Part shown: in pieces, positions 1-24,147 of the stretch
Layout: the number at the start of each line of letters is the position of its first letter
How positions within the stretch are numbered: the first letter of the stretch is position 1
Sequence record: NC_101835.1
Source: a phage
DNA: 64,000 bases
Direction: 5' to 3' (one strand)
The notes under the pieces: model-generated
Databases searched by the model: none
Seen by the model: the letters and a program-made list of their open reading frames with translations, nothing else
Told to the model about the DNA's origin: nothing
Program-made: the position numbers and the translations under genes

Positions 1-46
1 GGTGGTGCAGTTCTGATGTATAACTATCTTGAAAAAGGAGACAGCA

Positions 47-232: not shown

Positions 233-234
233 CG

Positions 235-699: not shown

Positions 700-761
700 T
701 AGTTGAGATATGGCACAAAGGATGTGCCATAGTGAAATAAACTAAGAAAGAGGTAGAGAGA

Positions 762-1584: not shown

Positions 1585-1602
1585 ACCAGGCAGGAGGGTT
1601 TT

Positions 1603-1791
1603 ATGAAGCACTATTGCCTGTCTGGTAGAATGGGTGCAGATTGTGATTGGGTTTTCTTAAAACTTGTCAGCATTCGAGAGTTCATCCCAGAGGAAGAGCA
1701 AGAAAGCGAGCTGATGTCATGGATCAACCATTACGGTAACACTTTTCGGCATGTTAAGGTAGAAGAGTTGCCAAGCGAGGCTGAATTATGA
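1603..1791 (+). CDS. hypothetical protein
   Basis: GGAGGG RBS before ATG. Confidence 0.45.
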   Translation: MKHYCLSGRMGADCDWVFLKLVSIREFIPEEEQESELMSWINHYGNTFRHVKVEELPSEAEL

Positions 1792-2084
1792 AACTTTTTG
1801 AGTGGTTTAAAAAGTTTAAATATAAAGCTGTAGCCATCGTGCCGTGGTCCATTCAGTGGGTTGATGAAGGTGGTCTACCGATACCTGGTGACAAAGATAC
1901 TGGGTACTGGATTATGATGGAGAACGGGTTTGGAAAGCGAAAGTATACGTGCACAAACTCTACTCGATCTGCACTTAATAGAGTGCCTGGTTACAAACTT
2001 ATGGTTGTGTGGAAAATGTCAGGCGTGCCTCCAGCCAATGCTCAATTTCTTACTGACAATCCGACCACGGTAGAGGGAGATTGA
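1788..2084 (+). CDS. hypothetical protein
   Basis: ATGA overlap with upstream stop. Confidence 0.5.
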   Translation: MKLFEWFKKFKYKAVAIVPWSIQWVDEGGLPIPGDKDTGYWIMMENGFGKRKYTCTNSTRSALNRVPGYKLMVVWKMSGVPPANAQFLTDNPTTVEGD

Positions 2085-2086
2085 TA

Positions 2087-2368
2087 ATGAAAAAGATTAA
2101 CAGTAGTGAAGTAGAGTTTAAACTTGTCGGAAAAGGCACTTACTGGGAAGTTCGTCAAAAGGTATATTTGTTCGGTCTTATTCCCTACTGGTCTAAATTC
2201 TACTGGGGAGCTAACGAGTTGGGAAGATACGCCACCAAATCAATGGCACTTATTGGTATAGCAGAGTACATTGCAGCCCGAGACAGGGTTGGAACCACTT
2301 ATTACTACACTGCTGACGATATTCGTAACAGTGTTTACGTCCCACAACCACCTGATGGAGACCGTTGA
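2087..2368 (+). CDS. hypothetical protein
   Basis: ATG after GAGGGAGA; track TTG start 2081 less likely. Confidence 0.5.
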   Translation: MKKINSSEVEFKLVGKGTYWEVRQKVYLFGLIPYWSKFYWGANELGRYATKSMALIGIAEYIAARDRVGTTYYYTADDIRNSVYVPQPPDGDR

Positions 2369-2592
2369 TGAAAGTTAAAGTTTTAGATTCAAGCTTCTAT
2401 ATTGGTCAGGAGCCTTTAGTAGGAAAAGTGTTTACTGCTGTCCCTAACGAAGATTACCCTGACCTTTTAAAAATAAAAGGAGCAGATCTTATTGCCGCTG
2501 GTGCATCTCAAGAATGCTTTGACAGTCAGTGGACCTATAACTTTGCCCTAGGTGAGGATGTAGAGGTAGTGGAGGACGATCATGAAGGTTAA
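2368..2592 (+). CDS. small acidic protein, paralog family 1 (copy A)
   Basis: MKVKVLDSSFYIGQ..GKVFTAV..ADLIAAGAS..GEDVEVVE; clear paralog of 2582-2836. Confidence 0.55.
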   Translation: MKVKVLDSSFYIGQEPLVGKVFTAVPNEDYPDLLKIKGADLIAAGASQECFDSQWTYNFALGEDVEVVEDDHEG

Positions 2593-2836
2593 AATTCTTG
2601 ATTCTAACGTCTACTTGGGACAATCCTTCCTGAATGGAAAGGTCGTTCCTGCGGTATACTTTGAAGGGTTGCCGTGGGATGATCCTGTGCGGCAACATCA
2701 CAGTTATGTAGGCCACAACGTGGTGTTTATCTTGGGATCAGACCTGATCACCGCTGGTGCACCTGAATATTATTTCGGGGAAGAGTCCTACTATGCCTTT
2801 GGGGTAGGGTCAGATGCAGATATTGTAGAGCTGTGA
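2582..2836 (+). CDS. small acidic protein, paralog family 1 (copy B)
   Basis: MKVKILDSNVYLGQ..GKVVPAV..SDLITAGAP..GSDADIVE; GGAGGA RBS. Confidence 0.55.
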   Translation: MKVKILDSNVYLGQSFLNGKVVPAVYFEGLPWDDPVRQHHSYVGHNVVFILGSDLITAGAPEYYFGEESYYAFGVGSDADIVEL

Positions 2837-2848
2837 TGGGTAACCGTT

Positions 2849-3247
2849 GTGAAAAATAAACTGTTTAAAGTTACAATGAAAATTCGCGGGGCTTGGAGCG
2901 TAAAGCAAGGGCGTATTCCAGAATTTGAGAAAGACTTCTACGTAGTCTCCACCTCGGAGGAGGCTGCATGCTGGCAGGCTGGCTATGCCTATGCAAGAAC
3001 CTGGTACGAAGGATACCAGACTGGGGGCTATGACGGAGAAATTATCAGCAAGGGTGTAGAAGAAATTAATGTGTTGACAAGTGAAAAAGTTTTTGTTATA
3101 GTGCATCCAGATTCCAGAGTGAAGCATTACTGGAATGCCAGAACAAAAACTTGGACACCGTTTGCAGATTCTGCTACGCCACTTTTAAACCAGAAAGCTC
3201 TTGACTCTGCCCCAAGTTATGGGGTTGTTGAAGAAAAGCTAAACTGA
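2849..3247 (+). CDS. hypothetical protein, paralog family 2 (copy A)
   Basis: GTG start inferred; C-terminal HPDSRVKHYWNARTKTWTP matches HPHSNIAYYWDVLNNEWTP of 5059-5454. Confidence 0.5.
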   Translation: MKNKLFKVTMKIRGAWSVKQGRIPEFEKDFYVVSTSEEAACWQAGYAYARTWYEGYQTGGYDGEIISKGVEEINVLTSEKVFVIVHPDSRVKHYWNARTKTWTPFADSATPLLNQKALDSAPSYGVVEEKLN

Positions 3248-3264
3248 AACAGTGAGGTGTCACC

Positions 3265-3555
3265 ATGATGGATTTAATTCTAAATATTGATAACGCAGGA
3301 GAGTTTAAAGACGATGGTGTAACAAGCATGGACAAACCCTGCTCTGCTAAGGTTGACTCAAAATGGACCTACAAGTTTGACGGAGAGATCTTCGCAAATG
3401 ATGAGAAGGTTGTAGATGCTGCAGCCATTTTAAACGCTCTAGGGTACGACCCTGTGAATTCTTTGATCAAGGATCCTGTTGAGTTTGCAGAGTATGTTCG
3501 AAAAATGGCAGATCTTGCTGTGGATATTTTAAAAACTATCGACAACAAGCTGTAA
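3265..3555 (+). CDS. hypothetical protein
   Basis: GTGAGGTG RBS before ATG. Confidence 0.5.
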   Translation: MMDLILNIDNAGEFKDDGVTSMDKPCSAKVDSKWTYKFDGEIFANDEKVVDAAAILNALGYDPVNSLIKDPVEFAEYVRKMADLAVDILKTIDNKL

Positions 3556-3561
3556 AAACTG

Positions 3562-3590
3562 TTGACACAACGCTTCAGATTTAGTATCAT
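3562..3590 (+). promoter_or_regulatory. sigma70-like promoter (TTGACA-N17-TATCAT)
   Basis: TTGACA at 3562-3567, 17-nt spacer, TATCAT at 3585-3590, about 50 nt upstream of hpf-like ATG. Confidence 0.45.
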
Positions 3591-3639
3591 TGTTTTCAAA
3601 GAGAGATAGTTATTCCCTCTTCCTTAAAAGGAACACGTT

Positions 3640-3960
3640 ATGCAAATTGAAATCACTGGCAACAATGTAGAAATCACAGAAGGTATGGTATCTTTTATTT
3701 CCCGCAAAATGTCCAAGCTGGAGCGTTTACATCCCTCTGTTAACTATGCACGTGTGAGTGTAAAAGTTGAAAATGATCACCAGGAAGTTATGGCGTTCAT
3801 TTTTGACAATTCTGGAAAAGAAGTTATTGCCAAGGCTAAAGGCAGTGATGCTTACGAGGCAACTGACCGTATGGTAGATGTTGCAGCACGTCAGCTGGCT
3901 AAATGCGGTGGAAAGAAAGGTAAGGGGAAAGGCAAAGTAAAGATTGACTTTGGAGAATGA
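3640..3960 (+). CDS. hpf: ribosome hibernation promoting factor / RaiA (S30AE) family homolog
   Basis: N-terminus MQIEITGNNVEITEGM.. recalls bacterial HPF MQLNITGNNVEITEAL..; KLE and ARQLAK segments; lysine-rich tail. Confidence 0.7.
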   Translation: MQIEITGNNVEITEGMVSFISRKMSKLERLHPSVNYARVSVKVENDHQEVMAFIFDNSGKEVIAKAKGSDAYEATDRMVDVAARQLAKCGGKKGKGKGKVKIDFGE

Positions 3961-4097
3961 GGTGCTACAATGGGTGTGATTAAGAAATTAGTCCCAAATG
4001 TAGAGATTGCATGCTTTGAAATTATGTTTGCAATCGCAGTTGTAGTTAATGTGTTAGGTTACGGCTATTAATATCAAATAATTGAGGAGACCTCTAA

Positions 4098-4367
4098 ATG
4101 AAAATTAAATTATTCCAAACTGAGCTGGCAGACAAAAATTGTGGACTGGTTGAAGGCATGATTGTTGAAGCACAACCAGTGGACTATATGAAGGTGGTTC
4201 GTGATGCCCTAGGTGAAGGTTTTGATCTGATGGAGCCAGCTCTGCGAGAAGATGTTATCGAGATGGCTAAAAAGCACACACCTGAAGGTTTGGTGGTGTT
4301 TGTTGCACCGGGTAACGGAGAAGAGTTGATTGTAACTCCTGATGTGTATGAGATTGTAGAGGAATAA
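4098..4367 (+). CDS. small acidic protein, paralog family 3
   Basis: GAGGAG RBS; MKIKLFQ.. ending ..TPDVYEIVEE; shared architecture with 5534-5791 and 6471-6758. Confidence 0.55.
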   Translation: MKIKLFQTELADKNCGLVEGMIVEAQPVDYMKVVRDALGEGFDLMEPALREDVIEMAKKHTPEGLVVFVAPGNGEELIVTPDVYEIVEE

Positions 4368-4458
4368 TCCTGCTTGGATTAGCATACTTCCTCGCTAAGG
4401 AAGATTTGTAATTATTTGTGGGAAAGGAGTCCCAATCTCTTACCAGAGGTGATACTAT

Positions 4459-4722
4459 ATGATTGTTTATTTTAAAACTTCAGGTGGATACCCTGATTCT
4501 CAAAGCTTGATCGGAAAAACGTGCACAGCATACTCACCTCTTGATGAGGAGGTAAGCGATATTTTACGAAATATGTATCGGATTGACCCCCAAGAAGCCT
4601 TTGATCAAAACCTTGTATTTGTCAAGGGCTCAGATATGAAGTCTTTGGGAGCATTCCCTGAAGCAGATGATGATGCCGTTTATTCGTTCATGACTCCTTT
4701 TGAAGCTATGGTTGTTGGGTGA
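4459..4722 (+). CDS. small acidic protein, paralog family 1 (copy C)
   Basis: GAGGTG RBS; GKTCTAY / FVKGSDMKSLGAF resemble family 1. Confidence 0.5.
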   Translation: MIVYFKTSGGYPDSQSLIGKTCTAYSPLDEEVSDILRNMYRIDPQEAFDQNLVFVKGSDMKSLGAFPEADDDAVYSFMTPFEAMVVG

Positions 4723-4726
4723 TAAT

Positions 4727-5059
4727 ATGAAAGTACGCTTTATTGGTGAAACAATTCCTGTGCATCTCCGGTCGCCTGAGGATTCTGCAGATCTTGCATC
4801 TCAAAAGGCGAGAGGTTATGATAAGAAAGTAACCTCAACCGATGTAGTGCTTGAGGCTACTAGTCTACCTGACCCTGCTGCATTCTTTAATCATTATGGG
4901 TACTATTTCAGCAATCTGATGAATATCGGTGAGCTTGTGTTTATTAGTGGTGGAGAAATTGTTAGCAAGCTTGGCGGCGATCCGGATATCTTTCATGAAA
5001 CCTGTCCTTTTGCATTTGTGGTAGGTTCAGATGTGGAAGTTATTGAGGAGGTGCGGTAA
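4727..5059 (+). CDS. small acidic protein, paralog family 1 (copy D)
   Basis: ATG at 4727 (track TTG 4700 less likely); C-terminal FVVGSDVEVIEE matches family 1. Confidence 0.5.
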   Translation: MKVRFIGETIPVHLRSPEDSADLASQKARGYDKKVTSTDVVLEATSLPDPAAFFNHYGYYFSNLMNIGELVFISGGEIVSKLGGDPDIFHETCPFAFVVGSDVEVIEEVR

Positions 5060-5454
5060 TGGTAAGCCTATACCGTGTTGAGTATAGCTCAGATACTGTA
5101 TACAACGTAAGAAGCAAAGATCGCAGCGACAGAGTGCAAGAAATGTATGTTCTTGCCGACAGTCCGTTATCTGCAGCGTTCAAGGCAGGGGCTCTTGCAT
5201 CTCGTTGGAAATTTGAAGGTGGATCTTTCTATGAAGAAACCCTTGAAGATTCTGTTGTTATTTCTTCTGTAGAGGTTTCAGATGACTACGAAGGGAAAAA
5301 GTTCGTAATGCGGCACCCACACAGCAACATTGCGTACTACTGGGATGTTCTGAACAACGAGTGGACCCCAGATCTTCAGAAGGCTACTGTGCTAACACCG
5401 TTTTTGGCAGATAAGTTCCCACCAGAAGGTAATTTATCCGCACTGTTTCAGTAA
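5059..5454 (+). CDS. hypothetical protein, paralog family 2 (copy B)
   Basis: GGAGGTG RBS; paralog of 2849-3247. Confidence 0.55.
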   Translation: MVSLYRVEYSSDTVYNVRSKDRSDRVQEMYVLADSPLSAAFKAGALASRWKFEGGSFYEETLEDSVVISSVEVSDDYEGKKFVMRHPHSNIAYYWDVLNNEWTPDLQKATVLTPFLADKFPPEGNLSALFQ

Positions 5455-5533
5455 TTTTCTTGCACACAGGTGTTGACAACGCCAACCCTGTGTGAAATAA
5501 TACCTTCATCTTAATAAGACAGGGGACCGATTG

Positions 5534-5791
5534 ATGAAGATTAAATTGAAAAACCTTGAAACGGCAGAGATTCAGGACGGTGTTGATTTCCGTTCTAAAG
5601 ATGGTGACATCTTAGAGGTAAATATTCCAACCTACGAGCTGATTAAAGGTTTTGGCAACGTTCCGGAAGAGGATATTACAGAAATTCTTATGATGTTGAT
5701 TCTTGACGGAACTGTGTTTGTAGGTGAAGGTGAGAACGCTATTGCAATCCCAGGCCATTTTTATGAAGTAGTTGACGAAGAGGTGCTGTAA
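5534..5791 (+). CDS. small acidic protein, paralog family 3
   Basis: MKIKLKN..KDGDILEVNIPTYELIKG..HFYEVVDEEVL. Confidence 0.55.
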   Translation: MKIKLKNLETAEIQDGVDFRSKDGDILEVNIPTYELIKGFGNVPEEDITEILMMLILDGTVFVGEGENAIAIPGHFYEVVDEEVL

Positions 5792-6142
5792 ATGAAAGTA
5801 GAAATTACCGGTTTTGATGTGAATGTGGTTCCGGAAGATATTTTAGCTAAACTTCCAGAAGGTTTTGGTAACGGCGTTGTGGTGGATGCTGTTCCTCCTA
5901 CCAAAGACATTCTGCTGCAGTATGGTGTAGCAGAGGAAGATGTCGATAAAGTTCTTACAATGATGGCAATCGATCGTGTTGTCGTTGTTAAAGGTCTCGA
6001 TAATTTTGAGAGTGATCCCTTGATTATTCGTGGAGATGACTACAAAATCATCGATAATGAAGGCCAAGAGTTCTATGAACCTTGTGCAGAAGATATTCTT
6101 AACTTATTACTGGAAGCAGGTACCGAAGAGGAGGACGAATAA
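5792..6142 (+). CDS. small acidic protein
   Basis: ORF directly abutting upstream stop; acidic C-terminus EEEDE. Confidence 0.5.
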   Translation: MKVEITGFDVNVVPEDILAKLPEGFGNGVVVDAVPPTKDILLQYGVAEEDVDKVLTMMAIDRVVVVKGLDNFESDPLIIRGDDYKIIDNEGQEFYEPCAEDILNLLLEAGTEEEDE

Positions 6143-6471
6143 TGAAGATTGACCCGTTACTGAAGGCTCGTGCAGAAAAAGCGTACACCATTAAGCTGAC
6201 CAACCTGGTTCCTACTTGTCATCCAGATGTAGGTTGGCCTGAAGGTCTGGTAGAGGGGACTGTAACAGCTGCATACCTCCCTAACATCAAATACCTCATG
6301 GAAATCTTGGAGCTGGATGAGGAAACGGCAGAAGAGTTCCAGTTGGACATGAAACAAAGTGGGACTCTGGTTATTCACGGGTGGTACAATACTAGAGATG
6401 CAGAAGACCCTCTGGTAACTTCTAATCTGGCATATGAAATCTTAGGGCCTTTGAACCTGGAGGAAGACTAA
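6142..6471 (+). CDS. small acidic protein
   Basis: GAGGAGGA RBS; start overlaps upstream stop. Confidence 0.5.
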   Translation: MKIDPLLKARAEKAYTIKLTNLVPTCHPDVGWPEGLVEGTVTAAYLPNIKYLMEILELDEETAEEFQLDMKQSGTLVIHGWYNTRDAEDPLVTSNLAYEILGPLNLEED

Positions 6472-6758
6472 TGAAAGATCTGGTTAAGATTAAGATTAAA
6501 GATACCAATGGAGAACTCAGTCATTTTGGAATTAATGATGGTGACGAGCTGATCGCACACCTGCCTACCAAGGAGGTTGTAAGCAAAGCAGTTGCCGGAG
6601 AAGAAGCTGCAATGCAGGCTGCAGGTGTGGATGAAAACTATGTAGCTATGTGCATGTGCCGAGATCAGGTTGTTCTGTATAAAGCGTATCGACCAAACGG
6701 AGCCACGGAGTGGCTTGTATTCCGACCCGAAGGATATGAAATCTTAGAGGCACTATGA
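6471..6758 (+). CDS. small acidic protein, paralog family 3
   Basis: GGAGGAAGA RBS; NDGDELIAHLPTKEVV.. ending EGYEILEAL. Confidence 0.55.
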   Translation: MKDLVKIKIKDTNGELSHFGINDGDELIAHLPTKEVVSKAVAGEEAAMQAAGVDENYVAMCMCRDQVVLYKAYRPNGATEWLVFRPEGYEILEAL

Positions 6759-6847
6759 TAAATCTTGCCAAGGTTGCAACGGCACTGTTAGTTATTTGCT
6801 GGTCTGTAACCTTAACACTGTGTCTTGTATTTCAGTGAGGTGCTTGT

Positions 6848-7111
6848 ATGAACATCCTGATGTGGGTTATAGCAGTGGCGTTTGTTGCATGTTTTTGCTG
6901 CTGGGTTGCGGTGAGGATTTCTGTAGCTACCCTTCGGAAGTTGGGGTTCTCAGAATGGGATATTAATATCCTTTCTTTTCGCAATGAAACAATCTCAGCC
7001 GCCCTGCTTTGTAAGAAATTTAAGTGGGAACCTTGTGAGGTCATGAGCTATCTAAGAACAGGCGATATCCCTGAAAGATTTAAAAAAGTTCTTGACGGCA
7101 AGGATAAATGA
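6848..7111 (+). CDS. small membrane protein
   Basis: GTGAGGTG RBS; N-terminal MNILMWVIAVAFVACFCCWVAV hydrophobic. Confidence 0.5.
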   Translation: MNILMWVIAVAFVACFCCWVAVRISVATLRKLGFSEWDINILSFRNETISAALLCKKFKWEPCEVMSYLRTGDIPERFKKVLDGKDK

Positions 7112-7120
7112 CAGTATAGT
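7092..7120 (+). promoter_or_regulatory. sigma70-like promoter (TTGACG-N17-TATAGT)
   Basis: TTGACG 7092-7097, 17-nt spacer, TATAGT 7115-7120. Confidence 0.4.
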
Positions 7121-7139
7121 GACTAACAAGAGGTGAGGA

Positions 7140-7280
7140 ATGACTGATTTTACTGAAGCTTTAATGATGGCCTTGTCTGTTTTAGCGCTATCGGTGTGTT
7201 TTGGGGCGTTATTCACATCTCTGGTTAAAGTTTTACATACAGTATTATTACCCAAGGAGCGCAGTAATGACGAAGATTGA
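7140..7280 (+). CDS. small hydrophobic peptide (46 aa)
   Basis: ATG after AGAGGTGAGGA; below ORF-track size cut-off; hydrophobic core ALSVLALSVCFGALF. Confidence 0.3.
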   Translation: MTDFTEALMMALSVLALSVCFGALFTSLVKVLHTVLLPKERSNDED

Positions 7281-7518
7281 CTTAAATGCTGGAGACCATG
7301 TTGTTGTCAAATGCATCGGAGATTATCTTGGATTCACAATCGGCAATACTTACGAGGCGGTAGTGGCGAAGGTTTACCATGATAAAGTCCTCAGTCTTGT
7401 ATTTGACTGCGATGATGATGGGGATGACCGATACGTCTGTGAGGTGCTGGCACGAGACGATAGTGAAGACCAGAAATTCCTGGTTATTGAACTGAACGGT
7501 ATTTTTGTAGAACGTTAA
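7267..7518 (+). CDS. hypothetical acidic protein
   Basis: ATG after AAGGAGCG; track start 7201 less likely. Confidence 0.5.
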   Translation: MTKIDLNAGDHVVVKCIGDYLGFTIGNTYEAVVAKVYHDKVLSLVFDCDDDGDDRYVCEVLARDDSEDQKFLVIELNGIFVER

Positions 7519-7546
7519 TTTAAAACAACATAAGGAGACTCTTACT

Positions 7547-7852
7547 ATGGCTAAATCTAAAGTTGAACTGTTCACCTCTCTTCCTTCTGACACTGCAGAG
7601 CGTGATCGCCTTCGCAAAACAATCGAAGAACTGGTAGAACTCCAACTTCAGATTAAAGATCTGAAAGATGCCATTAAGGATATCATTCTCGTTGAGAAGC
7701 AGGATCACCTGTATTCTCCTAAATTCATCAAATCTCTGGTGGCTACCGAGTTCGATATTCGCTATGAGGCTGAAAAACGTCGCGCTAAAATCGAAGAAGA
7801 GGTTGAGCACATGTCTGAGGCAGACATTCTGTTCAAACGCTCTGTAGAATAA
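7547..7852 (+). CDS. hypothetical coiled-coil protein
   Basis: TAAGGAGA RBS; followed by strong intrinsic terminator. Confidence 0.6.
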   Translation: MAKSKVELFTSLPSDTAERDRLRKTIEELVELQLQIKDLKDAIKDIILVEKQDHLYSPKFIKSLVATEFDIRYEAEKRRAKIEEEVEHMSEADILFKRSVE

Positions 7853-7859
7853 TGACAAA

Positions 7860-7884
7860 GAGGGGGGCTTGGGCCCCTCTTTTT
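7860..7884 (+). terminator. rho-independent terminator
   Basis: GAGGGG/CCCCTC stem, 8-nt loop, then TTTTT. Confidence 0.65.
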
Positions 7885-7907
7885 ACTATCTATGAAGGAG
7901 ATTTGAG

Positions 7908-8234
7908 ATGGGTATACCGATTACTGTAAAAGAGCTAAATGAACGTGATGCAGGTGGTCTATGGCCTGCACGAAAAATCCGCTGCGTCTATATGAAAGAG
8001 AATCTTGAACATCTTGATCAACAGATAAAGGTCGGCGATATTTTCGAGGTCTTCTATTCCAATCGGCGCAACTGGGAAACCATTCAGCCTTCTGGTTTTG
8101 TTCTTGCCAAACTTGACACTGGAGAAGTGATTATCCCTGGGTTGGATATTGTCTTCGAAATTATCCAAGAGTGGGATCCGGATAAGATTAGATACGAAGA
8201 ATTATTCGGTAAAGGTATTATCAAACCTGTGTGA
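7908..8234 (+). CDS. hypothetical protein
   Basis: GAAGGAGA RBS. Confidence 0.55.
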   Translation: MGIPITVKELNERDAGGLWPARKIRCVYMKENLEHLDQQIKVGDIFEVFYSNRRNWETIQPSGFVLAKLDTGEVIIPGLDIVFEIIQEWDPDKIRYEELFGKGIIKPV

Positions 8235-8242
8235 GGTGGATT

Positions 8243-8542
8243 ATGTCTACAAAGGCGGCTAAATACTCCTATATGCCATCAACCTCTGCAGAGGTAGACT
8301 TTAGTTTCGATGTGTTTCCACTGTTTGAGGTGGTTCTGGCATACCCAACAATACTAACTACTCCTGAATCACTTGTGCCTGTTAAGTTGCAGAACGCTAT
8401 GCATTCTATGCACTACAACAATAAATGTAGGCACAGATGGTGTCAGGACGAGGAAAAAGATTTGGATAGTTTGAGAGATTTTGACAGTCACCTTTTGACA
8501 CCTTTTAGCTACTCCAACCTTGATAAGCCCTCATGGGTATAG
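8243..8542 (+). CDS. hypothetical protein
   Basis: ATG after GAGGTGG; track start 8231 less likely. Confidence 0.45.
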   Translation: MSTKAAKYSYMPSTSAEVDFSFDVFPLFEVVLAYPTILTTPESLVPVKLQNAMHSMHYNNKCRHRWCQDEEKDLDSLRDFDSHLLTPFSYSNLDKPSWV

Positions 8543-8566
8543 CAAAATATCAAATTTAAGACACCT

Positions 8567-8593
8567 AGGACGCTCTGTGGCGTCCTTTTCTTT
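8567..8593 (+). terminator. rho-independent terminator
   Basis: AGGACGC/GCGTCCT stem, loop TCTGTG, then TTTCTTT. Confidence 0.55.
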
Positions 8594-8755
8594 GTCTGGT
8601 GCACGATTGCATACCTTGGACAGATAATCTCGTTACAGAGCGTTTAAGAGCTTCCTACAAACAACTCCATATTTCGAGCGTAGCGAGAACGCACGTCCGT
8701 TTTGACCCAAATCACCATACGCTCGGATTTTAACCAAACCCTCGCGGCGTTTCTA

Positions 8756-8784
8756 TTGACACATTACAGCTCCAGTGATAATAT
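8756..8784 (+). promoter_or_regulatory. near-consensus sigma70 promoter (TTGACA-N17-TAATAT)
   Basis: TTGACA 8756-8761, 17-nt spacer, TAATAT 8779-8784. Confidence 0.55.
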
Positions 8785-8804
8785 CCACACATCATTTGGA
8801 GAAT

Positions 8805-8906
8805 ATGGAATACACTATGAGAACATTGTCCGAAGTTTTAGTGGTGATCCTGATGATCATTACGTCCATAGCGGCTGTTGCCGGAATACTCACAGGTGGA
8901 ACATGA
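8805..8906 (+). CDS. small hydrophobic peptide (about 30 aa)
   Basis: Just downstream of promoter; GGAG before ATG; ..LSEVLVVILMIITSIAAVAGIL..; stop overlaps next ATG (ATGA). Confidence 0.35.
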   Translation: MEYTMRTLSEVLVVILMIITSIAAVAGILTGGT

Positions 8907-9115
8907 TCAACACACATGCATCTGAAGAGACATCCGAAGGAGTGACCATATGTCCCTTGGATGAGCCAGTTAAAGAGGAAAACTTAGATTCTGAGGACTC
9001 TTCATCTTCGTCCCAGACAGATCCTGAGGCTGATGACCTGACGTGGGAGGACATCGTAGATATCTGGTTCTCTATTATGCCTGAGCACGAAGAGTTCAGA
9101 GGTGGTAGACTATGA
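8903..9115 (+). CDS. small acidic serine-rich protein
   Basis: ATG after AGGTGG, coupled to upstream peptide; replaces the longer track ORF 8702-9115 which reads through the promoter. Confidence 0.35.
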   Translation: MINTHASEETSEGVTICPLDEPVKEENLDSEDSSSSSQTDPEADDLTWEDIVDIWFSIMPEHEEFRGGRL

Positions 9116-9234
9116 AGCACCGAGCCCACACAGGTTCCTCATGCTAAAGCATGGCCTGAAGAGGCAAACGTGCATAATTCCTGCGCATTTGGACGTATAA
9201 TCCTGTTCACACTCTCATTTCCAGAGGAGATTTT

Positions 9235-9450
9235 ATGAAGATAGAGATATTTGGTGGAGCTGACAACACTCGTGGCCTGATTTACCTTGAATTCGATGAA
9301 TCATACCTGCCAGAGGTGTTAAATATAGACTCTGTTGCTGAGGCTTTGGGAGTAAACCCTAAAGAACTCCACTCTTGTGCTGAGATCGATGGTTGGGAAG
9401 AGACCATGAACATTGATTTCAGTGAAGTAGAGGATGAACCGCTGGACTGA
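9235..9450 (+). CDS. small acidic protein
   Basis: GAGGAG RBS; MKIEIFGG.. acidic; last rightward gene before the non-coding zone. Confidence 0.5.
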   Translation: MKIEIFGGADNTRGLIYLEFDESYLPEVLNIDSVAEALGVNPKELHSCAEIDGWEETMNIDFSEVEDEPLD

Positions 9451-9800
9451 CACACAATTAGCTGCCCGGCTAAAGTGCTGGAAGCACCTATAACACATCT
9501 TTCAACTAAATTTCCTACCACCACAATCACTTACCTCCCACACATGACTGTTTGCTTGTTTAGTGAGCAGTCATGCCTTGACATTCTTGCCTATCCTGAT
9601 AAAATTAAGTTCTTCTCTTTTCTTTTACCGAGTAATTCGGGTTTTCTGTTCTCTTCGGTTTGAAGGGGTATGGAGATACACCTGAGTGAACAGGGTGAAC
9701 AACCGAACCTTTGGCTATGGCATTAGCATGGCGAAGCGGACGGGTGACGAAAGAGGGGCCGGAGGACACCAGTCACTGCCATATGATATATGGGTGATAA

Positions 9801-10342
9801 CCTGAAGAGTCTGAATAAGTGTTTAAGTACCAGTCAGAGGAAAAGGTGAATGGTAGCCGAAGGGGGGAGGGGGGTTTCTTGTATCTTTAATTTGTATATT
9901 ATGTATACACTTGTAAACCAATCTAATCTGAATCTGTTTACCACACAAAGCGGATAGAGACAAATATTGCCTATTAAACTTGAATTATTTATAGAAAATA
10001 CCACAACACTACTTAAGTCTTTGATTTTACACACAAATCCTGCAGATATTCACCCTCCATATTTAACATACTTGTAACATATTCCATACTCTACCTGCCC
10101 GATCAATTCACCCAACTACATCCCCATATTTTCCCTGTCTGTACTACCCCTGCCCCGCCGGGAGTCCCATCATATCTGGCTTTCCAGCAAATATCACACC
10201 CACAAATATCATTGCCTGAAGAGGGTTTCATCCCATAATACCTGCCTTACCTGAAGAGCGCTTCATACACCACGTAAATTTTTTAATTGACCTCCCCCTG
10301 CCCCGCCGGAGAGGTTGGCTTTTCCCACACAGACCTGAAGAG
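9801..10342. repeat. dispersed direct repeats (CCTGAAGAG x4; CCCCTGCCCCGCCGG x2)
   Basis: CCTGAAGAG at 9801, 10215, 10250, 10334; CCCCTGCCCCGCCGG at 10148 and about 10295; GACCTACAGG x2 near 10390-10450. Confidence 0.5.
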
Positions 10343-10918
10343 TCAGCCAGAAATATCTGAATAGGCCCAATTCTACCACGATTTTGACCTGACCTACAGG
10401 GAGGCCCGAAGGGTCTAGCTTTCAGCTAGAGTCCTTGCAGGACCTACAGGAGCGCTGCCAGGCGGACGGAATGGGAATACTTCTCATTCTTATAACAATT
10501 CTCAAATATCGAGGCAGTGAGAGAAATTAATAGGCCAGGCCGTTCACACAGTGGCACAACATTTGCAACCTATTTTGTGTGGATGAATGAGAATACCTAT
10601 CATTATGAGAATAGTTATCATTACTGGCAATTTAACATAATACCCATTATGCGCACCACTGGCGATCCATACAGGGATTGATAACATGAGTTACTGTTTA
10701 CGCATATAACAATTATATTTATTACTATTTGTGTTGGGTATAGTTAGCAGCCGATAGATTAGATATTGACCTGCAGACTTCCAACTGTCTAGACGTCTAA
10801 ACGCCCACACAGCAAGGATTATACATACACAACTGAATGTAAACAGGGCCGCAAAAATGCTACCATACCAGATTGTAAATTTTTCATGCAGCACTTGACA
10901 AAGAGGAGGAAAACTTGT

Positions 10919-10960
10919 CTGACATACTGTGACATAATATGACATAATAGTGACACACTG
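10919..10960. repeat. tandem 10-11 bp iterons (TGACATA-type)
   Basis: tgacatactg / tgacataata / tgacataatag / tgacacactg in direct tandem. Confidence 0.5.
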
Positions 10961-11052
10961 GGCATACTCAACACTGGATACAATAACAATTGTTACTATT
11001 GCATGCCTCACTGTTCACGCATAGATGATAAGCCATGCCATTCGTTTGCATG

Positions 11053-11312
11053 ACAATAATTAACTTGTTTACAATCTTTCACTGGCTATGCCAGGTGACC
11101 TTTGGTCACCCCTTCGGGTGTTTCTATGACATAATATAAAAGCAGGGCAACTATTAGAAGATCTATAGTTGCCTTGCTTGTTATGTCATGATTAACTAAA
11201 TACAAGGCAACTATGATCTGATTAATAGATTGCAGACAAACTATCACGGGGGTGATGGTTACTGCTTTTATATTATGTCGCGACTCCGTCGCGCCATGCC
11301 ATTCGTTTGCAT
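11053..11312. repeat. inverted-repeat element bracketed by 19-bp direct repeats
   Basis: CCATGCCATTCGTTTGCAT at 11053-11071 and 11294-11312; inverted arms 11127-11146 and 11262-11279; palindrome 11147-11174; GGCAACTAT 9-mer x4 in alternating orientation. Confidence 0.5.
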
Positions 11313-11972
11313 AGTTGCCTTATTGTTACAGGTAAAATAATTACATTATTAATTATTTCTTATCTTTCTCTTAGTCATCTAATGATTCCAGTCAGTATAG
11401 TAATGTACAGTAAACATTAGACGACTAAATATTTCTCTGTTTATGATAACTCACCGTGACAATTTCGGACTGTTTACGAAAAATGTTGACACCTAAGCTG
11501 ATTTATGTTATGCAGTTTACACGAATAATTATTTTATGCAGGTATTGACTATTCCGTTATTCTGTGGTTGGAATAAATACTTTGCAGGCTATAGAATGGC
11601 GTGCGTACATGAATTCTGAGATCTGGCGGCTATAGTTATACTCGATTTTTCACGTAGAACACGCTTTTTAGTTTGTGTAAGTGTATGACTTATAAGAATT
11701 TTTACTTGTTGACAAGATATTGAAGATCTGCATCAGGTTAAAATTTGTGCAATAGCTGCATTACGTGCAATTTTGGAAGGGAAAACGGGTAAAAATAGCC
11801 CTGCTACCACACAATGAAAAGTTATGCAATAGTTATTTTACATGTATATTTGTACAGTGTGTGGGGTTGATGGCTCGTCAATTATTCCACTTGCCAGGTA
11901 GGGCCGTTTATGGTAGGAGAAGAGCAGACAAAAAGAAAGGGGCCTAAGCCCCTTGATAATTCAGTTAAAAAA

Positions 11973-12860: not shown

Positions 12861-13133
12861 TTACTTATGGCGGCAGAATTCAAGCGTTTTTAATTGATAA
12901 TCTTCCTCAGCTTGGAGTACGACCGCCTCGATCATTTCGTTGGCATTGTTAAAGCCATAACCTTTAGCGAACTCATCCGCGCCACCTTCGTGATCATGTT
13001 CTGCGTTCATCGCTTCCACAAAATGGAATTCCAAATTGTTGAGGTAGGGGCTTGATGTTCCGTCCTCTTTTTCGATGAGATCCCAAATAGCATTAAAACG
13101 TGATTCGACTTCTTGATTAATCCAGCTTGACAT
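12861..13133 (-). CDS. hypothetical acidic protein
   Basis: GAGAGGAAAA RBS. Confidence 0.55.
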   Translation of the reverse strand: MSSWINQEVESRFNAIWDLIEKEDGTSSPYLNNLEFHFVEAMNAEHDHEGGADEFAKGYGFNNANEMIEAVVLQAEEDYQLKTLEFCRHK

Positions 13134-13344
13134 AGTGTTTTCCTCTCTCCTGGTTGTTGTGTGGGCACTTTTGCCCCTTCAAGATAAATGTTACCCCACC
13201 CCATGGCAGATGTCAACGGTTTTTATAGTTCTTATATGACAGGCAGGCCCGGTGATTGTCTCCCCCCGTCGCCAGGTGCCTGCCGTGAAACAAGTATAAC
13301 AAAAAACAGGACCATTGCAAGCCCTGTTTTGTAGTTTATAAATA

Positions 13345-14985: not shown

Positions 14986-15060
14986 GATTTTTTATCCTCT
15001 TTGTGGTTGGTGGGGTTCGTTGCCCCTTTGATTTATATATTACAGTCTTATATGGTCATG

Positions 15061-15294
15061 TCAACTATTTTCAAAAAATTTTTCTGCTGTGATATTCTTC
15101 CCGGTAGGGTTCGCTACTTTCAAAATTTTATCATGCACTGGACGCCCAAAAGAATAAGCGCCGTACACAGTAAACCAATAATCGCCGTCAGGTTGTACTA
15201 TTACTGCCGCATATGGTACGCCTTTTTCGTTTTTGCTGACAAAATAGATCACGTTGCCATTAATAGCCTCGGCGCGTTTAATTTGTTCCATCAT
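15061..15294 (-). CDS. hypothetical protein
   Basis: AGAGAGG RBS. Confidence 0.5.
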   Translation of the reverse strand: MMEQIKRAEAINGNVIYFVSKNEKGVPYAAVIVQPDGDYWFTVYGAYSFGRPVHDKILKVANPTGKNITAEKFFENS

Positions 15295-15350
15295 GATGAT
15301 TTGCCTCTCTTTATTTTCATAATTGGGGGGCCTTTTCGGCCCCGCCAGGT

Positions 15351-16459: not shown

Positions 16460-16716
16460 TTTGTTTCTCCTTTCTGGTTTTTGTGTTGGTGGGGATTAGC
16501 TCCCCGTTGATTATTATTATCCATATTTCGGACCGGATTGCAACACCCCGGAAGAAAAATTTTTTGAAAAAGTTAGGCCCCCAGGGATCGGGGGCCGTTA
16601 TCAGTTACTTACAGCGATAAAATACATCCCTACGCCTAACAATATTTCAAGGGCGATGATCTCAAGCCATACCATAACCCGGCGCACCTTATCGGTGCGG
16701 GGCTTATCCTTGGTTG

Positions 16717-20624: not shown

Positions 20625-21020
20625 TTAGTAAGTTTTCAGTACTTTACCGTCCAACCTGTCAAGCTGGATCTCGATAGCTGCAGAAAACCTATTGTAAACC
20701 ACATCGCCCATAGAATCCAACCAGTCTATGACATTATACACCTGCTCTTTATTCTTGCAAGTCCGGATCCGTTTCATTACGTAAGACGGATCAATATTAG
20801 TGCTCCCGTTGTTGTGGTCATGCGCCTGGCCTGCTGCACTGGTTATAGATTTTACAACCACCTGAAAGGGCTTTAAGGTGCCTTTTGCGTTCATCTCACG
20901 CGCTTTTGCGGCGCGGTTGTTATATGTTACACAACGGCGGCAAATGTTGACTAAATGCATGTCAATAATTTTTTCATCGTTTGCCAGTTCGTTCATGATG
21001 CGGCGTACGTTCTTATTCAT
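20625..21020 (-). CDS. hypothetical protein
   Basis: AAAGGAAAAAAGATC before ATG (MNKNVRR); track start 21119 lies upstream of promoter and RBS. Confidence 0.5.
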   Translation of the reverse strand: MNKNVRRIMNELANDEKIIDMHLVNICRRCVTYNNRAAKAREMNAKGTLKPFQVVVKSITSAAGQAHDHNNGSTNIDPSYVMKRIRTCKNKEQVYNVIDWLDSMGDVVYNRFSAAIEIQLDRLDGKVLKTY

Positions 21021-21069
21021 GATCTTTTTTCCTTTGTGCTGGCGGGAAACATTCCCGCCTTTTGTGTCT

Positions 21070-21097
21070 AGTTTACTTAAATTTTGCAGCGTGTCAA
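21070..21097 (-). promoter_or_regulatory. sigma70-like promoter (TTGACA-N16-TAAACT)
   Basis: Followed by 5-prime UTR hairpin GGCGGGAATGTTTCCCGCC (21043-21061). Confidence 0.45.
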
Positions 21098-21103
21098 TGA
21101 TTT

Positions 21104-21502
21104 TTATTCGTGGGCGCATGTCACAATGTGCTTTTTATAGCCCAGGTGGTCAGCAAGTGCCGACAAAAACTCTTCTTCGTAGATCCAGCCGTCGGCAGTG
21201 ATCCCCATAGCATTTAATGCGCTCTCAAGTGCTGCGTTAGCTTTATCGTAACCGTGACCGCTAGCCTTGCCGCCAGTATAACCGTACTTATTGTTCTTGT
21301 TGTCGTGAATCCAAAACACGCAGTAGTGAGTGTTACCACTGGCGGCGGCATAATACCGGATCTCAGCTACTTCGTGCAAATTATTGTCATCGTCCAGGCC
21401 CACCAGATTATAAGCCTTGTAAAATCCACGATCACGGCGGCAGTTCTTGACATCAGAAAAAGAAAAGTCGGCATTATCAAAATTAAAGGTTGTGGTTTTC
21501 AT
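21104..21502 (-). CDS. hypothetical protein
   Basis: TAAGAGGATAAAATC before ATG. Confidence 0.5.
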   Translation of the reverse strand: MKTTTFNFDNADFSFSDVKNCRRDRGFYKAYNLVGLDDDNNLHEVAEIRYYAAASGNTHYCVFWIHDNKNNKYGYTGGKASGHGYDKANAALESALNAMGITADGWIYEEEFLSALADHLGYKKHIVTCAHE

Positions 21503-21566
21503 GATTTTATCCTCTTAGTGTCTTTTGTGATTTCAGTATATTTTGTGTCAGACTACATGTCAATAT

Positions 21567-21768
21567 TTATTTTTTATTAAACCAGTGGTTGATCTGACCT
21601 TTTGTCAGGGCGCAACGATTAAGCTGTTGCAGGGTATAGCTATGACCGCGACGAAATTTATAAAGGCCTTGCCCGTTGTTGATGGTTACATCCACCCGGC
21701 AAATCACTTGATTGGTGACCACCTGGCGAGTGTTGCGACGTACTTTAATTCCGTAGGCGTTCATGATT
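21567..21768 (-). CDS. hypothetical basic protein
   Basis: AGAGGATAAAAAAATC before ATG (MNAYGIK). Confidence 0.4.
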
Positions 21769-21850
21769 TTTTTATCCTCTCTGTTAATTGGTGTGGTGTT
21801 GTTCACCTTGCGAGGATAAGAATAACAAGAACTGTCCGAGCTGTCAACCA

Positions 21851-22027
21851 TTAGTTAAAATTATTTTTTGGGTAGAATTCTCCAGCCGCCGCCCCTGCCA
21901 GGTTAACCATCATTTTTTCGTACTCTTCTTTATGTTCCAACGCTCCCGCCATAGCCTTTTCAACCAGGGCGATAGCCTCAGCGTCATTAATAGCTACATT
22001 TTCCAGGGGGATCATATTACCTTCCAT
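21851..22027 (-). CDS. hypothetical small protein (58 aa)
   Basis: AGGAGGTACAAAA before ATG (MEGNMIPLENVAIN..); below track cut-off. Confidence 0.4.
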   Translation of the reverse strand: MEGNMIPLENVAINDAEAIALVEKAMAGALEHKEEYEKMMVNLAGAAAGEFYPKNNFN

Positions 22028-22069
22028 TTTTGTACCTCCTCTTCAATTGTTACCTATCCTATAGCATAG

Positions 22070-23040
22070 GCCCACCAGGTTTACAAGCCTTCATTCTCCC
22101 CTACCTGGTCAGTTAGGTCCTGCCAGGCTGGCCCCGCCAGGTTGCAGCGGTTAGCGCATCAGGTTAGAAAAATTTTTTGAAAAGTGTTGACAGCGGCCCC
22201 GCCAGGTGGCACAATATACCTATCGAAAGGACGGCAGGCACTGGTGACGGGGGAGACAACCACCGGGGATGGGCGCTGCATAAAATGAGAACGATTATCA
22301 TTATCATTTAAAAATTTATGCAAAAAATCCTTGCTTTCTTTGTCCTGTGTGATACTATAATAACAAGCCGGGGCAACAGGGGCCGGGAGACAATCACCGG
22401 GCCTGCCCGTTATTCTGCAAACGAGAATGATTATCATTCAAAATTCTAAATGAGAACTCCTCGCATTTAATAAATTTAATTAGCACGCTAATTACCTACC
22501 GTGACAATTATATATAAAATAATACCTCCTAAAATATTTCCATATACAAATTTTAAAAATCCATTTCTGAAAACGAAAAATCGATTTCGTCCCCAAAAAT
22601 TTCAGGTCGAGATCCGGAACGATTTCCAGAAAATCCGATTTAGAAAACGAAAAACAGATCGAGTACTGAGAAATTTATCGAGAAAAATTTTCAGAAAATC
22701 CAAGCCATGAAATGAAAAGTAGATCGAGTACTGGAAAAATTGTACCGCAACCCACTGATAGTGATGGGTTTTCCGTCATAAATCACTAAGAGTGAGTGGA
22801 GAAAGGTATGGTGGAGAGGTGTGTATGTGTGGGAAATCTGTAATGGTGGCCTGAAATATGGTGCAAACGGCTAGATAGATTGGCACAATTTTCCGCGCCT
22901 GTGTTGAAAAAATCCATTTTAGTTTTCGATCCATTTTCTGATTTTCTAAGGATTTTAAAATATCCTGGTAGGTAAAATATCAAAAGGAGGAAATCCATTT
23001 TAGAAATCCCCCTTATACTTGATATGCCAGGAATTTTCAA
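22070..23040. repeat. non-coding repeat island (GC-rich motifs, tandem about 60-nt units, AT-rich iterons)
   Basis: GGCCCCGCCAGGT x2; two units GGGAGACAA(C/T)CACCGGG...GAGAA(C/T)GATTATCATT; 22500-23040 has repeated AAAATCCATTT(T/C) and AGATCGAGTACTG. Confidence 0.5.
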
Positions 23041-23043
23041 GTA

Positions 23044-23373
23044 TCAGTTGTCTTTGTTTTTAGGTTTGTACATGCGCAGAGGTATGGTCTTTGTAACATT
23101 CCATTTCCTCAACCCTTCCCAGCTCCAGTTGTGGGCGTGGTATCCGGTTATGCATGCACTACTGGAGTGATCGTAAGCATAAGAGAACGCTAAGCGCACC
23201 AGGTGGGGCCAGTCCTTCCATGGTTGTGGACCGTAAGCTTTTCTCCAACACCGACACAAACTAAATGTCTCAAGGATAGGAAGGATAACAAACCCATACA
23301 CTGTCACCAAAATAGTCAGTGCAATGATTGTCAGGAACACATACCCTGCAGTTGAAATGATGATCTCTGTCAT
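23044..23373 (-). CDS. membrane protein
   Basis: AAAGGGGA RBS; N-terminal TM YVFLTIIALTILVTVYGFVILPI. Confidence 0.5.
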   Translation of the reverse strand: MTEIIISTAGYVFLTIIALTILVTVYGFVILPILETFSLCRCWRKAYGPQPWKDWPHLVRLAFSYAYDHSSSACITGYHAHNWSWEGLRKWNVTKTIPLRMYKPKNKDN

Positions 23374-23573
23374 TTGTCGTCCCCTTTCTTACGGATATAA
23401 ATGTGAGAACCTGCCTGTATATAAATTTCTCGACCATCTTCTGCGAAGATGTGGAATACACGGTCACCTTCGTACTCAATACGAGATATCTTCATAGTGG
23501 TCTTCCCACCGGGGATACGGATCTCATCACCCACAGCAATGTTCCATGCGGATTTAAGCTTAAACATCAGCAC
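23370..23573 (-). CDS. hypothetical protein
   Basis: AAAGGAGGG RBS. Confidence 0.5.
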   Translation of the reverse strand: MLMFKLKSAWNIAVGDEIRIPGGKTTMKISRIEYEGDRVFHIFAEDGREIYIQAGSHIYIRKKGDDK

Positions 23574-23805
23574 CCTCCTTTGGGAACTTAAACTCTGGCA
23601 TAGCCATGTACGCTACAACAGGGTTGTGATCAAAGTAGAACTGACCGTTAATTATCCCGGTTTTGTCCACATAGTTACCAGATCCTGCAAGAACAACCTC
23701 GCAAGCTCCGAAATCCACATTGCCATCCTCATCAGCCATGGCTACGATATACTTTCCAAGAGGCATGTTTTTAACGCCGTCTACAAATGTCCACTCTGTG
23801 TTCAT
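23560..23805 (-). CDS. hypothetical protein
   Basis: AAGGGTAAAG before ATG. Confidence 0.5.
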   Translation of the reverse strand: MNTEWTFVDGVKNMPLGKYIVAMADEDGNVDFGACEVVLAGSGNYVDKTGIINGQFYFDHNPVVAYMAMPEFKFPKEGADV

Positions 23806-23814
23806 ACTTTACCC

Positions 23815-24147
23815 TTAAGGTAGCCAGTAAACAATCTCGCCTTTCAGCTTCATGTCGTTTCCAACATAAATTTCCCAGCCATCCATCTTAGCCACTGCAG
23901 GAGTGAAGTCCGTAGAACCACTAACCTCTTTCCAAGTCCCGTAGTCAGGTTGCCAGATATAGAATCCACCTTCCTTGTCCCATGCTCCATATACCACATC
24001 GAGCAGGTTGCCCATTGCAACAATAATAGGCCGTGGGAATAATACATCTACAGATGCGCCACAATTTCGGGTATCTTTTAAGTTGCAATCCCAAAAGATG
24101 TCTGCCAGTGTGGCGGCGATAGCTTTACGTCTTTCCAATGTTACCAT
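23815..24147 (-). CDS. hypothetical protein
   Basis: ORF with GTGAG upstream. Confidence 0.45.
   Translation of the reverse strand: MVTLERRKAIAATLADIFWDCNLKDTRNCGASVDVLFPRPIIVAMGNLLDVVYGAWDKEGGFYIWQPDYGTWKEVSGSTDFTPAVAKMDGWEIYVGNDMKLKGEIVYWLP

Follow-up and report, generated by a model that had tools for sequence, protein, structure and literature searches.

What function accounts for a kilobase of phage DNA that seems to hold no gene, in the middle of an array of genes? We asked this of positions 22036-23043 (here called the island) of a 64,000-nt stretch of phage DNA (sequence record NC_101835.1; the whole stretch is called the window). An earlier note on this DNA had seen no credible open reading frame (ORF) between the leftward genes at 21851-22027 and 23044-23373 and had proposed a replication origin, a small-RNA locus, or a regulatory hub. 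Judged by the 96% identity of 21800-23400 to coliphage rV5 (DQ832317, 116425-118023), and by the matches of the same region to 121 phage records, almost all of them Vequintavirus, the window comes from an rV5-like Vequintavirus. Seven ORFs flank the island (four on its left and three on its right), all on the minus strand and all in PHROG families of unknown function. We found the island to be noncoding and under selection. We tentatively favor a reading in which it is a noncoding early transcription unit, gated by the host iron repressor Fur, that would run into a protein-binding repeat array, possibly an origin (features in Table 1).

GenBank records suggest another account, in which the island encodes small proteins: rV5 and other entries place genes like ORF198 and ORF199 in it. 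ORFs of 92, 84, and 69 amino acids (aa) do exist here, some of them annotated, so that the absence of credible ORFs claimed earlier holds in the sense that all of them fail coding tests. The 92-aa ORF is open in most Vequintavirus genomes and matches a protein family, phrog_14993. However, the variable sites within it (n = 36, ten Vequintavirus sequences) are split 12:12:12 across codon positions, and it contains no Pfam domain. A 1-nt deletion in rV5_ev156 shifts the frame in its last third, a metagenomic relative has it shortened to 45 aa, and its C-terminal ends vary among relatives because of indels in an A/T run. Other genera, in which the DNA itself is conserved, have retained no equivalent ORF. 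The ORF199 area contains 1-nt and 2-nt indels among relatives and gave no protein-family match, and the three direct repeats of the island lie 74 and 65 nt apart, which makes a common reading frame impossible. Despite the annotated ORFs, then, no conserved protein gene was found in homologs. The island is noncoding, and the protein-coding account is very improbable, to the point of being nearly excluded. The family phrog_14993 was probably built from spurious ORFs, and we flag it and several GenBank ORFs as probable misannotations.

The island is also under selection, and its core is far more conserved among close relatives than are the flanking genes. We aligned five Vequintavirus sequences (the window, L001, L002, L010, and L052) and counted variable columns per 50 nt. 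Counts were 22 to 34 in the neighboring protein gene (23044-23373) but 1 to 12 across 22200-22700; within the latter, 22200-22450 and 22551-22700 each had 1 to 5, and 22201-22250 had a single variable column. At the distal end, 22901-22950 had 4, and the central spacer (22701-22900) had 21 to 33. The left part (22051-22150), which includes two copies of a GC-rich motif, has lost stretches of 13 and 21 nt in one relative, for which reason we consider it dispensable. Over longer distances, sensitive blastn found only 22370-22480 of the island conserved in distant genera (72 to 88% identity), mostly with no annotated gene underneath; matches came from Phapecoctavirus, Justusliebigvirus, Mydovirus, Seunavirus, Certrevirus, Erwinia phage Hena1, and Serratia phage Kashira.

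Two predicted sigma-70 promoters, P1 and P2, point rightward from the conserved core. P1 has 10/12 hexamer matches and an extended −10 (TG) in a promoter scan; P2, read from the sequence, has a weak −35 and a perfect TATAAT 3 nt beyond its extended −10. Promoter-like sites are no more numerous in the region than expected by chance (4 versus 4.3), so the real support for these promoters is conservation: the −35, the −10, and their spacing before the unit described below are kept in every lineage, and the spacer sequence differs. Transcription would start at about 22222 (P1) and 22365 (P2). The sense strand of genes is usually purine loaded. Purines make up 55% of the plus strand in 22200-23043, versus 54% in the rightward genes (1-9500) and 45% in the flanking leftward genes, which supports rightward transcription through the whole island.

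The GC-rich motif GGCCCCGCCAGGT, listed by the earlier note as a repeat, is exact at 22130 and 22195; its third copy is real but lies at 15338 rather than 15331. It has 5 matches at ≤2 mismatches in the window versus 0.7 expected. In P1 it is a promoter-spacer motif and not an independent repeat, and early promoters of relatives have similar GC-rich spacers with CC(N)GG. The overlapping motif pair at 22116-22146 is possibly a promoter remnant; its region is dispensable, given that 22097-22117 is deleted in L052. The third copy (15320-15350) is part of a GC hairpin (GGGGCC-TTTTC-GGCCCC), whose 3′ arm and tail it supplies; the hairpin separates two ORFs of the minus strand, and this copy lies outside any promoter spacer. 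The UP-like sequence of P1, AGAAAAATTTTTTGAAAA, recurs on the minus strand at 15059-15085, where TTGACA follows, and on the plus strand at 16553-16570; its recurrence together with TTGACA suggests a common class of strong early promoters. A related sequence, AGAAAAATTTTCAGAAAA, lies inside the third direct repeat (22681-22698).

Each predicted start coincides with the 5′ end of a repeated unit. Two units of about 60 nt had been reported, and both are present; they would be promoter driven from the predicted sigma-70 start sites, and they belong to an element conserved across genera. Units 1 and 2 have a common 17-nt core with 94% identity (22251-22267 and 22385-22401) followed by GAGAAYGATTATCATT (exact at 22287 and 22423), the two occurrences of core plus GAGAAYGATTATCATT being 134 nt apart. 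GAGAAYGATTATCATT has 8 matches at ≤3 mismatches in the window versus 1.2 expected. The related motif reported near 10600 is real (10589-10622) but comprises only the 3′ half of the unit (GAGAAT..TATCATT), without GGGAGACAA. Comparison of the island with the rest of the window revealed a third copy, which contains a 23-nt exact match to unit 2 (13242-13264) and resembles the 5′ half of unit 1 over 13231-13287. A covariance model, built on six sequences with a structure that we proposed ourselves, scored unit 2 at 34 bits (E value of 3e-8) and the third copy at 16.9 bits and did not detect unit 1.

The third copy has a promoter of its own (TTGCAA, 16-nt spacer, TATACT), set within a terminator hairpin; the hairpin's loop contains the −35, and its stem varies by genus while its pairing is kept (CAGGG/CCTG, TAGGGC/GTCCTA, CCAGGGC/GTCCTGG, and GGGG/CCCC). 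After it come a second promoter (TTGACA-17-TAACAT) and a protein gene (12861-13133). This second locus is conserved in other genera, where it lies about 7 to 10 kb away and is oriented opposite to the island. A Fur-like box follows the unit there in PBES02 (15/19), and weaker ones (<14/19, read by eye) do so in SPLA5a and FKP3; none was found at this locus in the window or in anhysbys. The unit is a family of promoter-proximal elements, often but not always coupled to Fur boxes, and its second-locus copy would head a transcript into genes.

A unit with a promoter at its 5′ end could be a small RNA. On that account the island would be a trans-acting small-RNA locus whose units are early stand-alone regulatory or decoy RNAs acting through the conserved GAGACAAnCACCG, with the Fur boxes and repeats as unrelated neighbors. 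All three copies in the window are preceded by a promoter of their own that would start transcription at the unit's 5′ end, and the family is kept at two separate loci in several genera. A fold can be drawn in every copy, in which the first 8 nt pair over a long range with ..CCCGCUAU and an inner hairpin forms around GAGACAAnCA; in an alignment read by eye, the variation (G-C to G-U and A-U to G-C), including the G-U pairs, fits the plus strand. Single-sequence folds gave z-scores of −0.1 to −2.6 (mean about −1.2). However, MAFFT with RNAalifold returned no consensus fold for the units, and the model-fitted alignment gave only a 3-bp stem. In that alignment 79.6% of cells pair, versus about 44% (range, 36 to 49%) with slid partners, but two of the slid controls (+2 and +3) reach the same covariation score (0.169), and both partners vary in only 3 pairs. 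Lineages also differ in the register of the inner helix. The covariation analysis across relatives that had been suggested gave a score no better than that of slid controls, and the RNA fold of the unit is plausible but unproven.

Other observations also count against discrete small RNAs. None of the three copies has an intrinsic terminator after it, which speaks more for a leader than for a discrete small RNA, and the 13.3-kb copy continues into protein genes and so looks like a leader. No complementary target was found in the window, and an Rfam search of 21000-24000 and three related loci returned nothing beyond chance. The small-RNA locus proposed earlier is weakened by the missing terminators and covariation; we consider it quite unlikely. 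A leaderless peptide was rejected: some lineages have an AUG at the start site, several have AUA, and frames and stops differ. Readings as RyhB-like, signal recognition particle (SRP)-like, CsrA-decoy, hammerhead, or retron elements lacked defining motifs and Rfam support. No tRNA or tmRNA was detected when the whole window was scanned.

The only noncoding RNA so far described from this phage group is a repeat RNA of a phage in the same subfamily, the pseudo-ToxI of Certrevirus phiTE (PMC3475682). Both that locus and the island are noncoding and contain repeats; pseudo-ToxI consists of 36-nt tandem repeats that mimic an antitoxin, whereas the island has units of 65 to 74 nt, and their sequences are unrelated. 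We rejected the island as the counterpart of pseudo-ToxI, which lies elsewhere in phiTE, between tRNA genes and phiTE_203, near the terminase gene. In bacteria, blastn against 5,426 complete Escherichia coli genomes found no match to the unit plus Fur box, and a bacterial genome scan with the 16-base unit core was uninformative, giving scattered matches in unrelated taxa at the level that chance predicts for so short a pattern.

The earlier reading of the region as possibly regulatory stands but was incomplete, having missed that the 3′ half of the unit is a near-consensus Fur box. Scored against the E. coli consensus (19-bp GATAATGATAATCATTATC, or 7-1-7 TGATAATnATTATCA), the sites at 22287 and 22423 are the two best 19-mers in the 64 kb, where 0.02 sites are expected at ≤3 mismatches. 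The box of cluster 2 contains a perfect 15-bp palindrome, GAATGATTATCATTC (22425-22439). Overlapping weaker sites are phased at 6 bp (22281, 22287, and 22293; 22417 and 22423), and genuine Fur clusters consist of overlapping sites spaced 3 or 6 bp apart (PMC2189734). Sites of ≥14/19 occurred 25 to 125 nt 3′ of the unit core in 12/12 island loci and almost nowhere else in these loci of about 3 kb; the background of such sites in the window is 4 per 60.7 kb. The boxes resemble E. coli Fur operators (iucA, fepA, fhuF, and ryhB) in their 17/19 and 15/19 matches, palindromic core, and overlapping 6-bp-phased sites in tandem clusters. They differ in being candidate sites in a virulent phage and in not lying over a −35 or −10. 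Hexamers of the GAGAAT type, as in the island boxes, occur in genuine Fur sites too. Fur is predicted to bind at 22281-22311 and 22417-22469. A Fur-repressed minus-strand promoter (TTGAAT-18-CAGAAT), which would produce an RNA antisense to the unit, was considered and dropped because the box at the second locus of PBES02 moves 35 nt away while YATTC stays on the unit.

Near-consensus boxes could also serve as a decoy: amplified with the phage genome, they would soak up host Fur and derepress the iron regulon. Fur boxes at high copy number titrate Fur, which is the basis of the Fur titration assay. Phapecoctavirus and Justusliebigvirus have up to 4 to 6 tandem boxes, and more Fur-like boxes lie at 10471-10622 in the window. 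The window, however, has just 2 to 3 boxes per site, a decoy would not need a fixed position between unit and repeats, and no iron-dependent step of the phage is known to require derepression. We judge this explanation improbable.

The island layout is shared by six or more genera within Vequintavirinae and Stephanstirmvirinae. The order of parts is constant across lineages, from a sigma-70 promoter through the unit to 1 to 5 tandem Fur-like palindromes (TGAGAATnATTmTCA), with an additional promoter after the palindromes in some. Promoters and Fur boxes, the parts expected to contact host factors, keep their sequence across genera, as does the unit. The earlier proposal of a regulatory hub is sustained in this broad sense, the island being selected, noncoding, and regulatory, with units that appear to be promoter driven. 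Where the window has unit 1, other genera have an RNA-like element that is conserved but unrelated, together with a small ORF on the plus strand, for which reason unit 1 looks like a Vequintavirus-specific duplication.

Several features of these other loci lie outside the shared layout. All genera but Vequintavirus have a conserved promoter-driven element of about 90 nt upstream of the unit (1330-1425 in the PVP-SE1 locus, L003; also in L004, L005, L006, L008, L015, and L046). It contains ACGCCnCCnACGGCG ... GATCGCCGGTAGyTCG and could form a pseudoknot between a hairpin-loop CCCC and a downstream GGGG (CCAA/UUGG in another clade); RNAalifold gave no covariation for it, and it has no Rfam match. 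At the left end of the island, other genera have a small plus-strand ORF with its own promoter (L003 1097-1279, PVP-SE1 gp201; L004 1075-1341; L005 1066-1257), which the window lacks. The window also lacks the direct repeat TTTGTAAAGAnTTGTAAAGA, found just upstream of the −35 of the unit promoter in Seunavirus, Mydovirus, and Certrevirus (L003 1435-1460, with equivalents in L005 and L046-L050).

Downstream of the Fur boxes lies an array of direct repeats in one orientation, beside AT-rich DNA (72 to 80% AT in 22501-22600). The AT-rich repeats reported earlier, AGATCGAGTACTG (22656-22668 and 22721-22733) and AAATCCATTT (exact at 22557, 22910, and 22991), are present as parts of longer composite units. 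Each of the three repeats combines an A/T tract with a GAAAATCC(A/G)ATTT box, and two of the three also have AGATCGAGTACTG. As a 10-mer AAATCCATTT is not enriched in the window (11 matches versus 9.6 expected); it is significant because of its fixed place in the repeat units. The repeat layout, though not the repeat sequence, recurs in three other genera: in PVP-SE1, KPP-1, and POP15, 3 to 4 direct repeats of 53 to 67 nt lie downstream of the Fur boxes. The boxes within such repeats are lineage specific: ATCCATTT and GATCGAGTAC in the window, ATACGATTT and CGATCGAGAAC in PVP-SE1 and in Klebsiella and Certrevirus phages, and, read by eye, ACTTTAAAT in Phapecoctavirus and CCTCAAGT in Hena1. This is the pattern that would be expected of sites coevolving with a phage DNA-binding protein.

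Such an array need not take part in replication. The island may instead be a transcription-control hub that separates two leftward operons, the units being cis-acting promoter-proximal RNAs that stabilize a 5′ end or promote read-through, like HK022 put, and the repeats binding a phage regulator. The island does lie between a possible leftward-operon end (hairpin at 23012-23047) and a candidate leftward promoter (22058-22086). The units always come directly after promoters, often with a second promoter next, and the 5′ end of the drawn RNA is paired, a known stabilizing arrangement. Like HK022 putL and putR and lambda nut, the unit is a conserved, hairpin-capable element of about 55 to 70 nt that directly follows early promoters and occurs at two or more loci. 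It differs from them in having no sequence similarity and a fold without covariation support. In addition, P1 and P2 have no rightward gene downstream to serve, the repeats are not linked to any promoter, and no protein partner is known. We regard a hub with no part in replication as unlikely.

The candidate leftward promoter has ACCTGGTGGGCC, a copy of the GC-rich CCWGG motif, in its spacer; it falls below the threshold of the promoter scan, in an area that is poorly conserved and partly deleted in L052. The hairpin at the other end folds at −8.1 kcal/mol on the plus strand and −10.3 kcal/mol on the minus strand. It was not flagged by a terminator scan, and it is a possible end of both the rightward transcript and the leftward operon.

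The Fur-gated reading that we tentatively favor would connect these parts as follows. Host RNA polymerase would read the island rightward, opposite to the surrounding leftward genes, from tandem sigma-70 promoters (P1 and P2) that each start at the 5′ end of a unit of about 55 nt. Some 55 to 85 nt downstream, the polymerase would reach an operator cluster for iron-bound host Fur. With iron plentiful, bound Fur would block or reduce read-through and might also lower firing of the next promoter, 45 to 75 nt further on. With iron scarce, transcription would continue for about 0.7 kb across the AT-rich array, with its three repeats of 65 to 74 bp and further boxes, which may be binding sites for a fast-evolving phage protein. 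The array would most likely be an origin or a comparable nucleoprotein switch activated by transcription, as in transcription-activated phage origins. What the sequences themselves establish is that the island is noncoding and selected, with promoter-like sites, Fur-box matches of high quality, a conserved layout, and a distinct strand composition; that the promoters fire, that Fur binds and gates read-through, and that the array is an origin are inferences from these.

The origin step, taken alone, is doubtful, and it leans on analogy with known origins. As at the primary origin of T7 (promoters 1.1A and 1.1B plus an AT-rich stretch) and at T4 oriF and oriG (promoter plus unwinding element), all established systems, tandem promoters of the island face an AT-rich noncoding stretch, and the initial transcript would have G runs. 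The island differs in that its promoters are of the host sigma-70 type and that composite 65- to 74-bp repeats and Fur boxes lie in between. Iteron origins (lambda ori, P1 oriR, pSC101, RK2, and RSF1010) likewise have direct repeats beside AT-rich DNA; the island has at least three in the same orientation, with a lineage-specific sequence, as if coevolved with a binding protein. Its repeats, however, are composites of 65 to 74 bp and not 17 to 22 bp, and it has neither DnaA and integration host factor (IHF) sites nor a recognizable initiator gene alongside.

Several observations weigh against the Fur-gated reading as a whole. The Fur boxes overlap neither the −35 nor the −10 of P1 or P2, in contrast to the usual geometry of a repressor; they lie about 55 to 85 nt downstream of one start site and 45 to 75 nt upstream of the next promoter. 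The third copy of the unit in the window is followed by no Fur box, so that unit and Fur can be uncoupled, and covariation gives no support for an RNA structure of the unit. The island contains no DnaA box (≤1 mismatch) and no IHF core, GATC has an average density there and is not enriched, and no initiator gene was recognized among the seven neighboring ORFs, which contain no Pfam domain. In rV5, skew analysis did not place the origin, the skew changes merely tracking gene orientation (PMC3606486). We found no transcript, Fur-binding, or replication data for these phages in the literature, nor any description of the island region or transcript map for the group.

A further point against the same reading is that a second noncoding region of the window (9800-11970), at the convergence of the rightward and leftward gene arrays, is just as plausible a candidate for the origin. 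Fur-like boxes begin there at 10471, 10587, and 10605, and a minus-strand promoter-like site (10630-10602) overlaps two of the three. The region also contains four copies of CCTGAAGAG, two of CCCTGCCCCGCCGG, a 20-nt sequence repeated exactly (11032 and 11293), and a perfect inverted repeat of 18 nt (11128 and 11262). It may correspond to the box marked "non-coding" on the genome map of the rV5 paper.

The components of the island (sigma-70 promoters, Fur boxes, and iteron-like repeats) are of known kinds; their combination, its occurrence in virulent phages, and the unit family appear to be undescribed. It is possible, though doubtful, that virulent phages of Vequintavirinae and Stephanstirmvirinae carry an undescribed module, a promoter-proximal RNA element with Fur operators, that tunes an early noncoding function, most plausibly origin firing, to host iron, and that the unit is a new RNA family present at two conserved loci in each genome. 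If so, the unit would add a new conserved element, of RNA or DNA, whose partner can be tested. Genes borne by temperate phages are known to come under Fur control; for virulent phages, our literature search found no report of Fur boxes or of conserved operators for Fur. Should Fur bind here, phage development would hinge on how much iron is available, a point that bears on the gut and on infected tissue, where iron is withheld. Biocontrol and therapeutic uses of phages like rV5, directed at E. coli O157, Salmonella, Klebsiella, and plant pathogens, are widespread, and for these the origin and early regulation matter.

Table 1. Features of the island and related loci, in window coordinates; promoters, Fur boxes, and leader elements are predicted from the sequence
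Feature	Position	Strand	Description
Second noncoding region	9800-11970 (2.2 kb)		Lies where rightward and leftward gene arrays converge
Third unit copy	13231-13330	−	In intergenic gap 13134-13344
Candidate leftward promoter for gene 21851-22027	22058-22086	−	TTGTAA, 17-nt spacer, TATAGG, TG; read from sequence
GC-rich motif pair	22116-22146	+	Overlapping GGTCCTGCCAGGC and GGCCCCGCCAGGT
92-aa ORF	22159-22437	−	rV5 ORF198; matches phrog_14993 (E value 4e-64); overlaps promoters, units, and Fur boxes
Promoter P1	22166-22215	+	UP-like AGAAAAATTTTTTGAAAA, TTGACA (22187), 17-nt spacer with GGCCCCGCCAGGT, TGgCACAAT ending at 22215
Unit 1	22222-22286	+	Diverged paralogue of leader element; core GGGGGAGACAACCACCGGGG
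Fur-box cluster 1	22281-22311		GAGAACGATTATCATTATC at 22287-22305, 17/19
Promoter P2	22331-22361	+	TTGCTT, 16-nt spacer, TGaTACTAT extended −10
Unit 2	22364-22418	+	Conserved leader element of about 55 nt; core GAGACAATCACCGG and TGCCCGTTATTC
Fur-box cluster 2	22417-22469		GAGAATGATTATCATTCAA at 22423-22441, 15/19
Degenerate third box	22449-22469		AAATGAGAACTCCTCGCATTT
Three 65-nt direct repeats	22538-22741	+	Starts at 22538, 22612, and 22677; spaced 74 and 65 nt
Poorly conserved spacer	22742-22900		Also has 1- to 2-nt indels
Distal ATCCATTTT box cluster	22904-23006	+	Boxes at 22910, 22928, and 22991
AT-rich hairpin	23012-23062		Inverted repeat CTTATACTTGA/TCAAGTATCAG, then TTGTCTTTGTTTTT on the plus strand (U-rich tail)

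Among the records that match 21800-23400 are 16 labeled "Campylobacter phage" (MG0656xx, host Campylobacter jejuni), of which the six tabulated are about 92% identical to it. These records look like mislabeled or contaminating Vequintavirus genomes.

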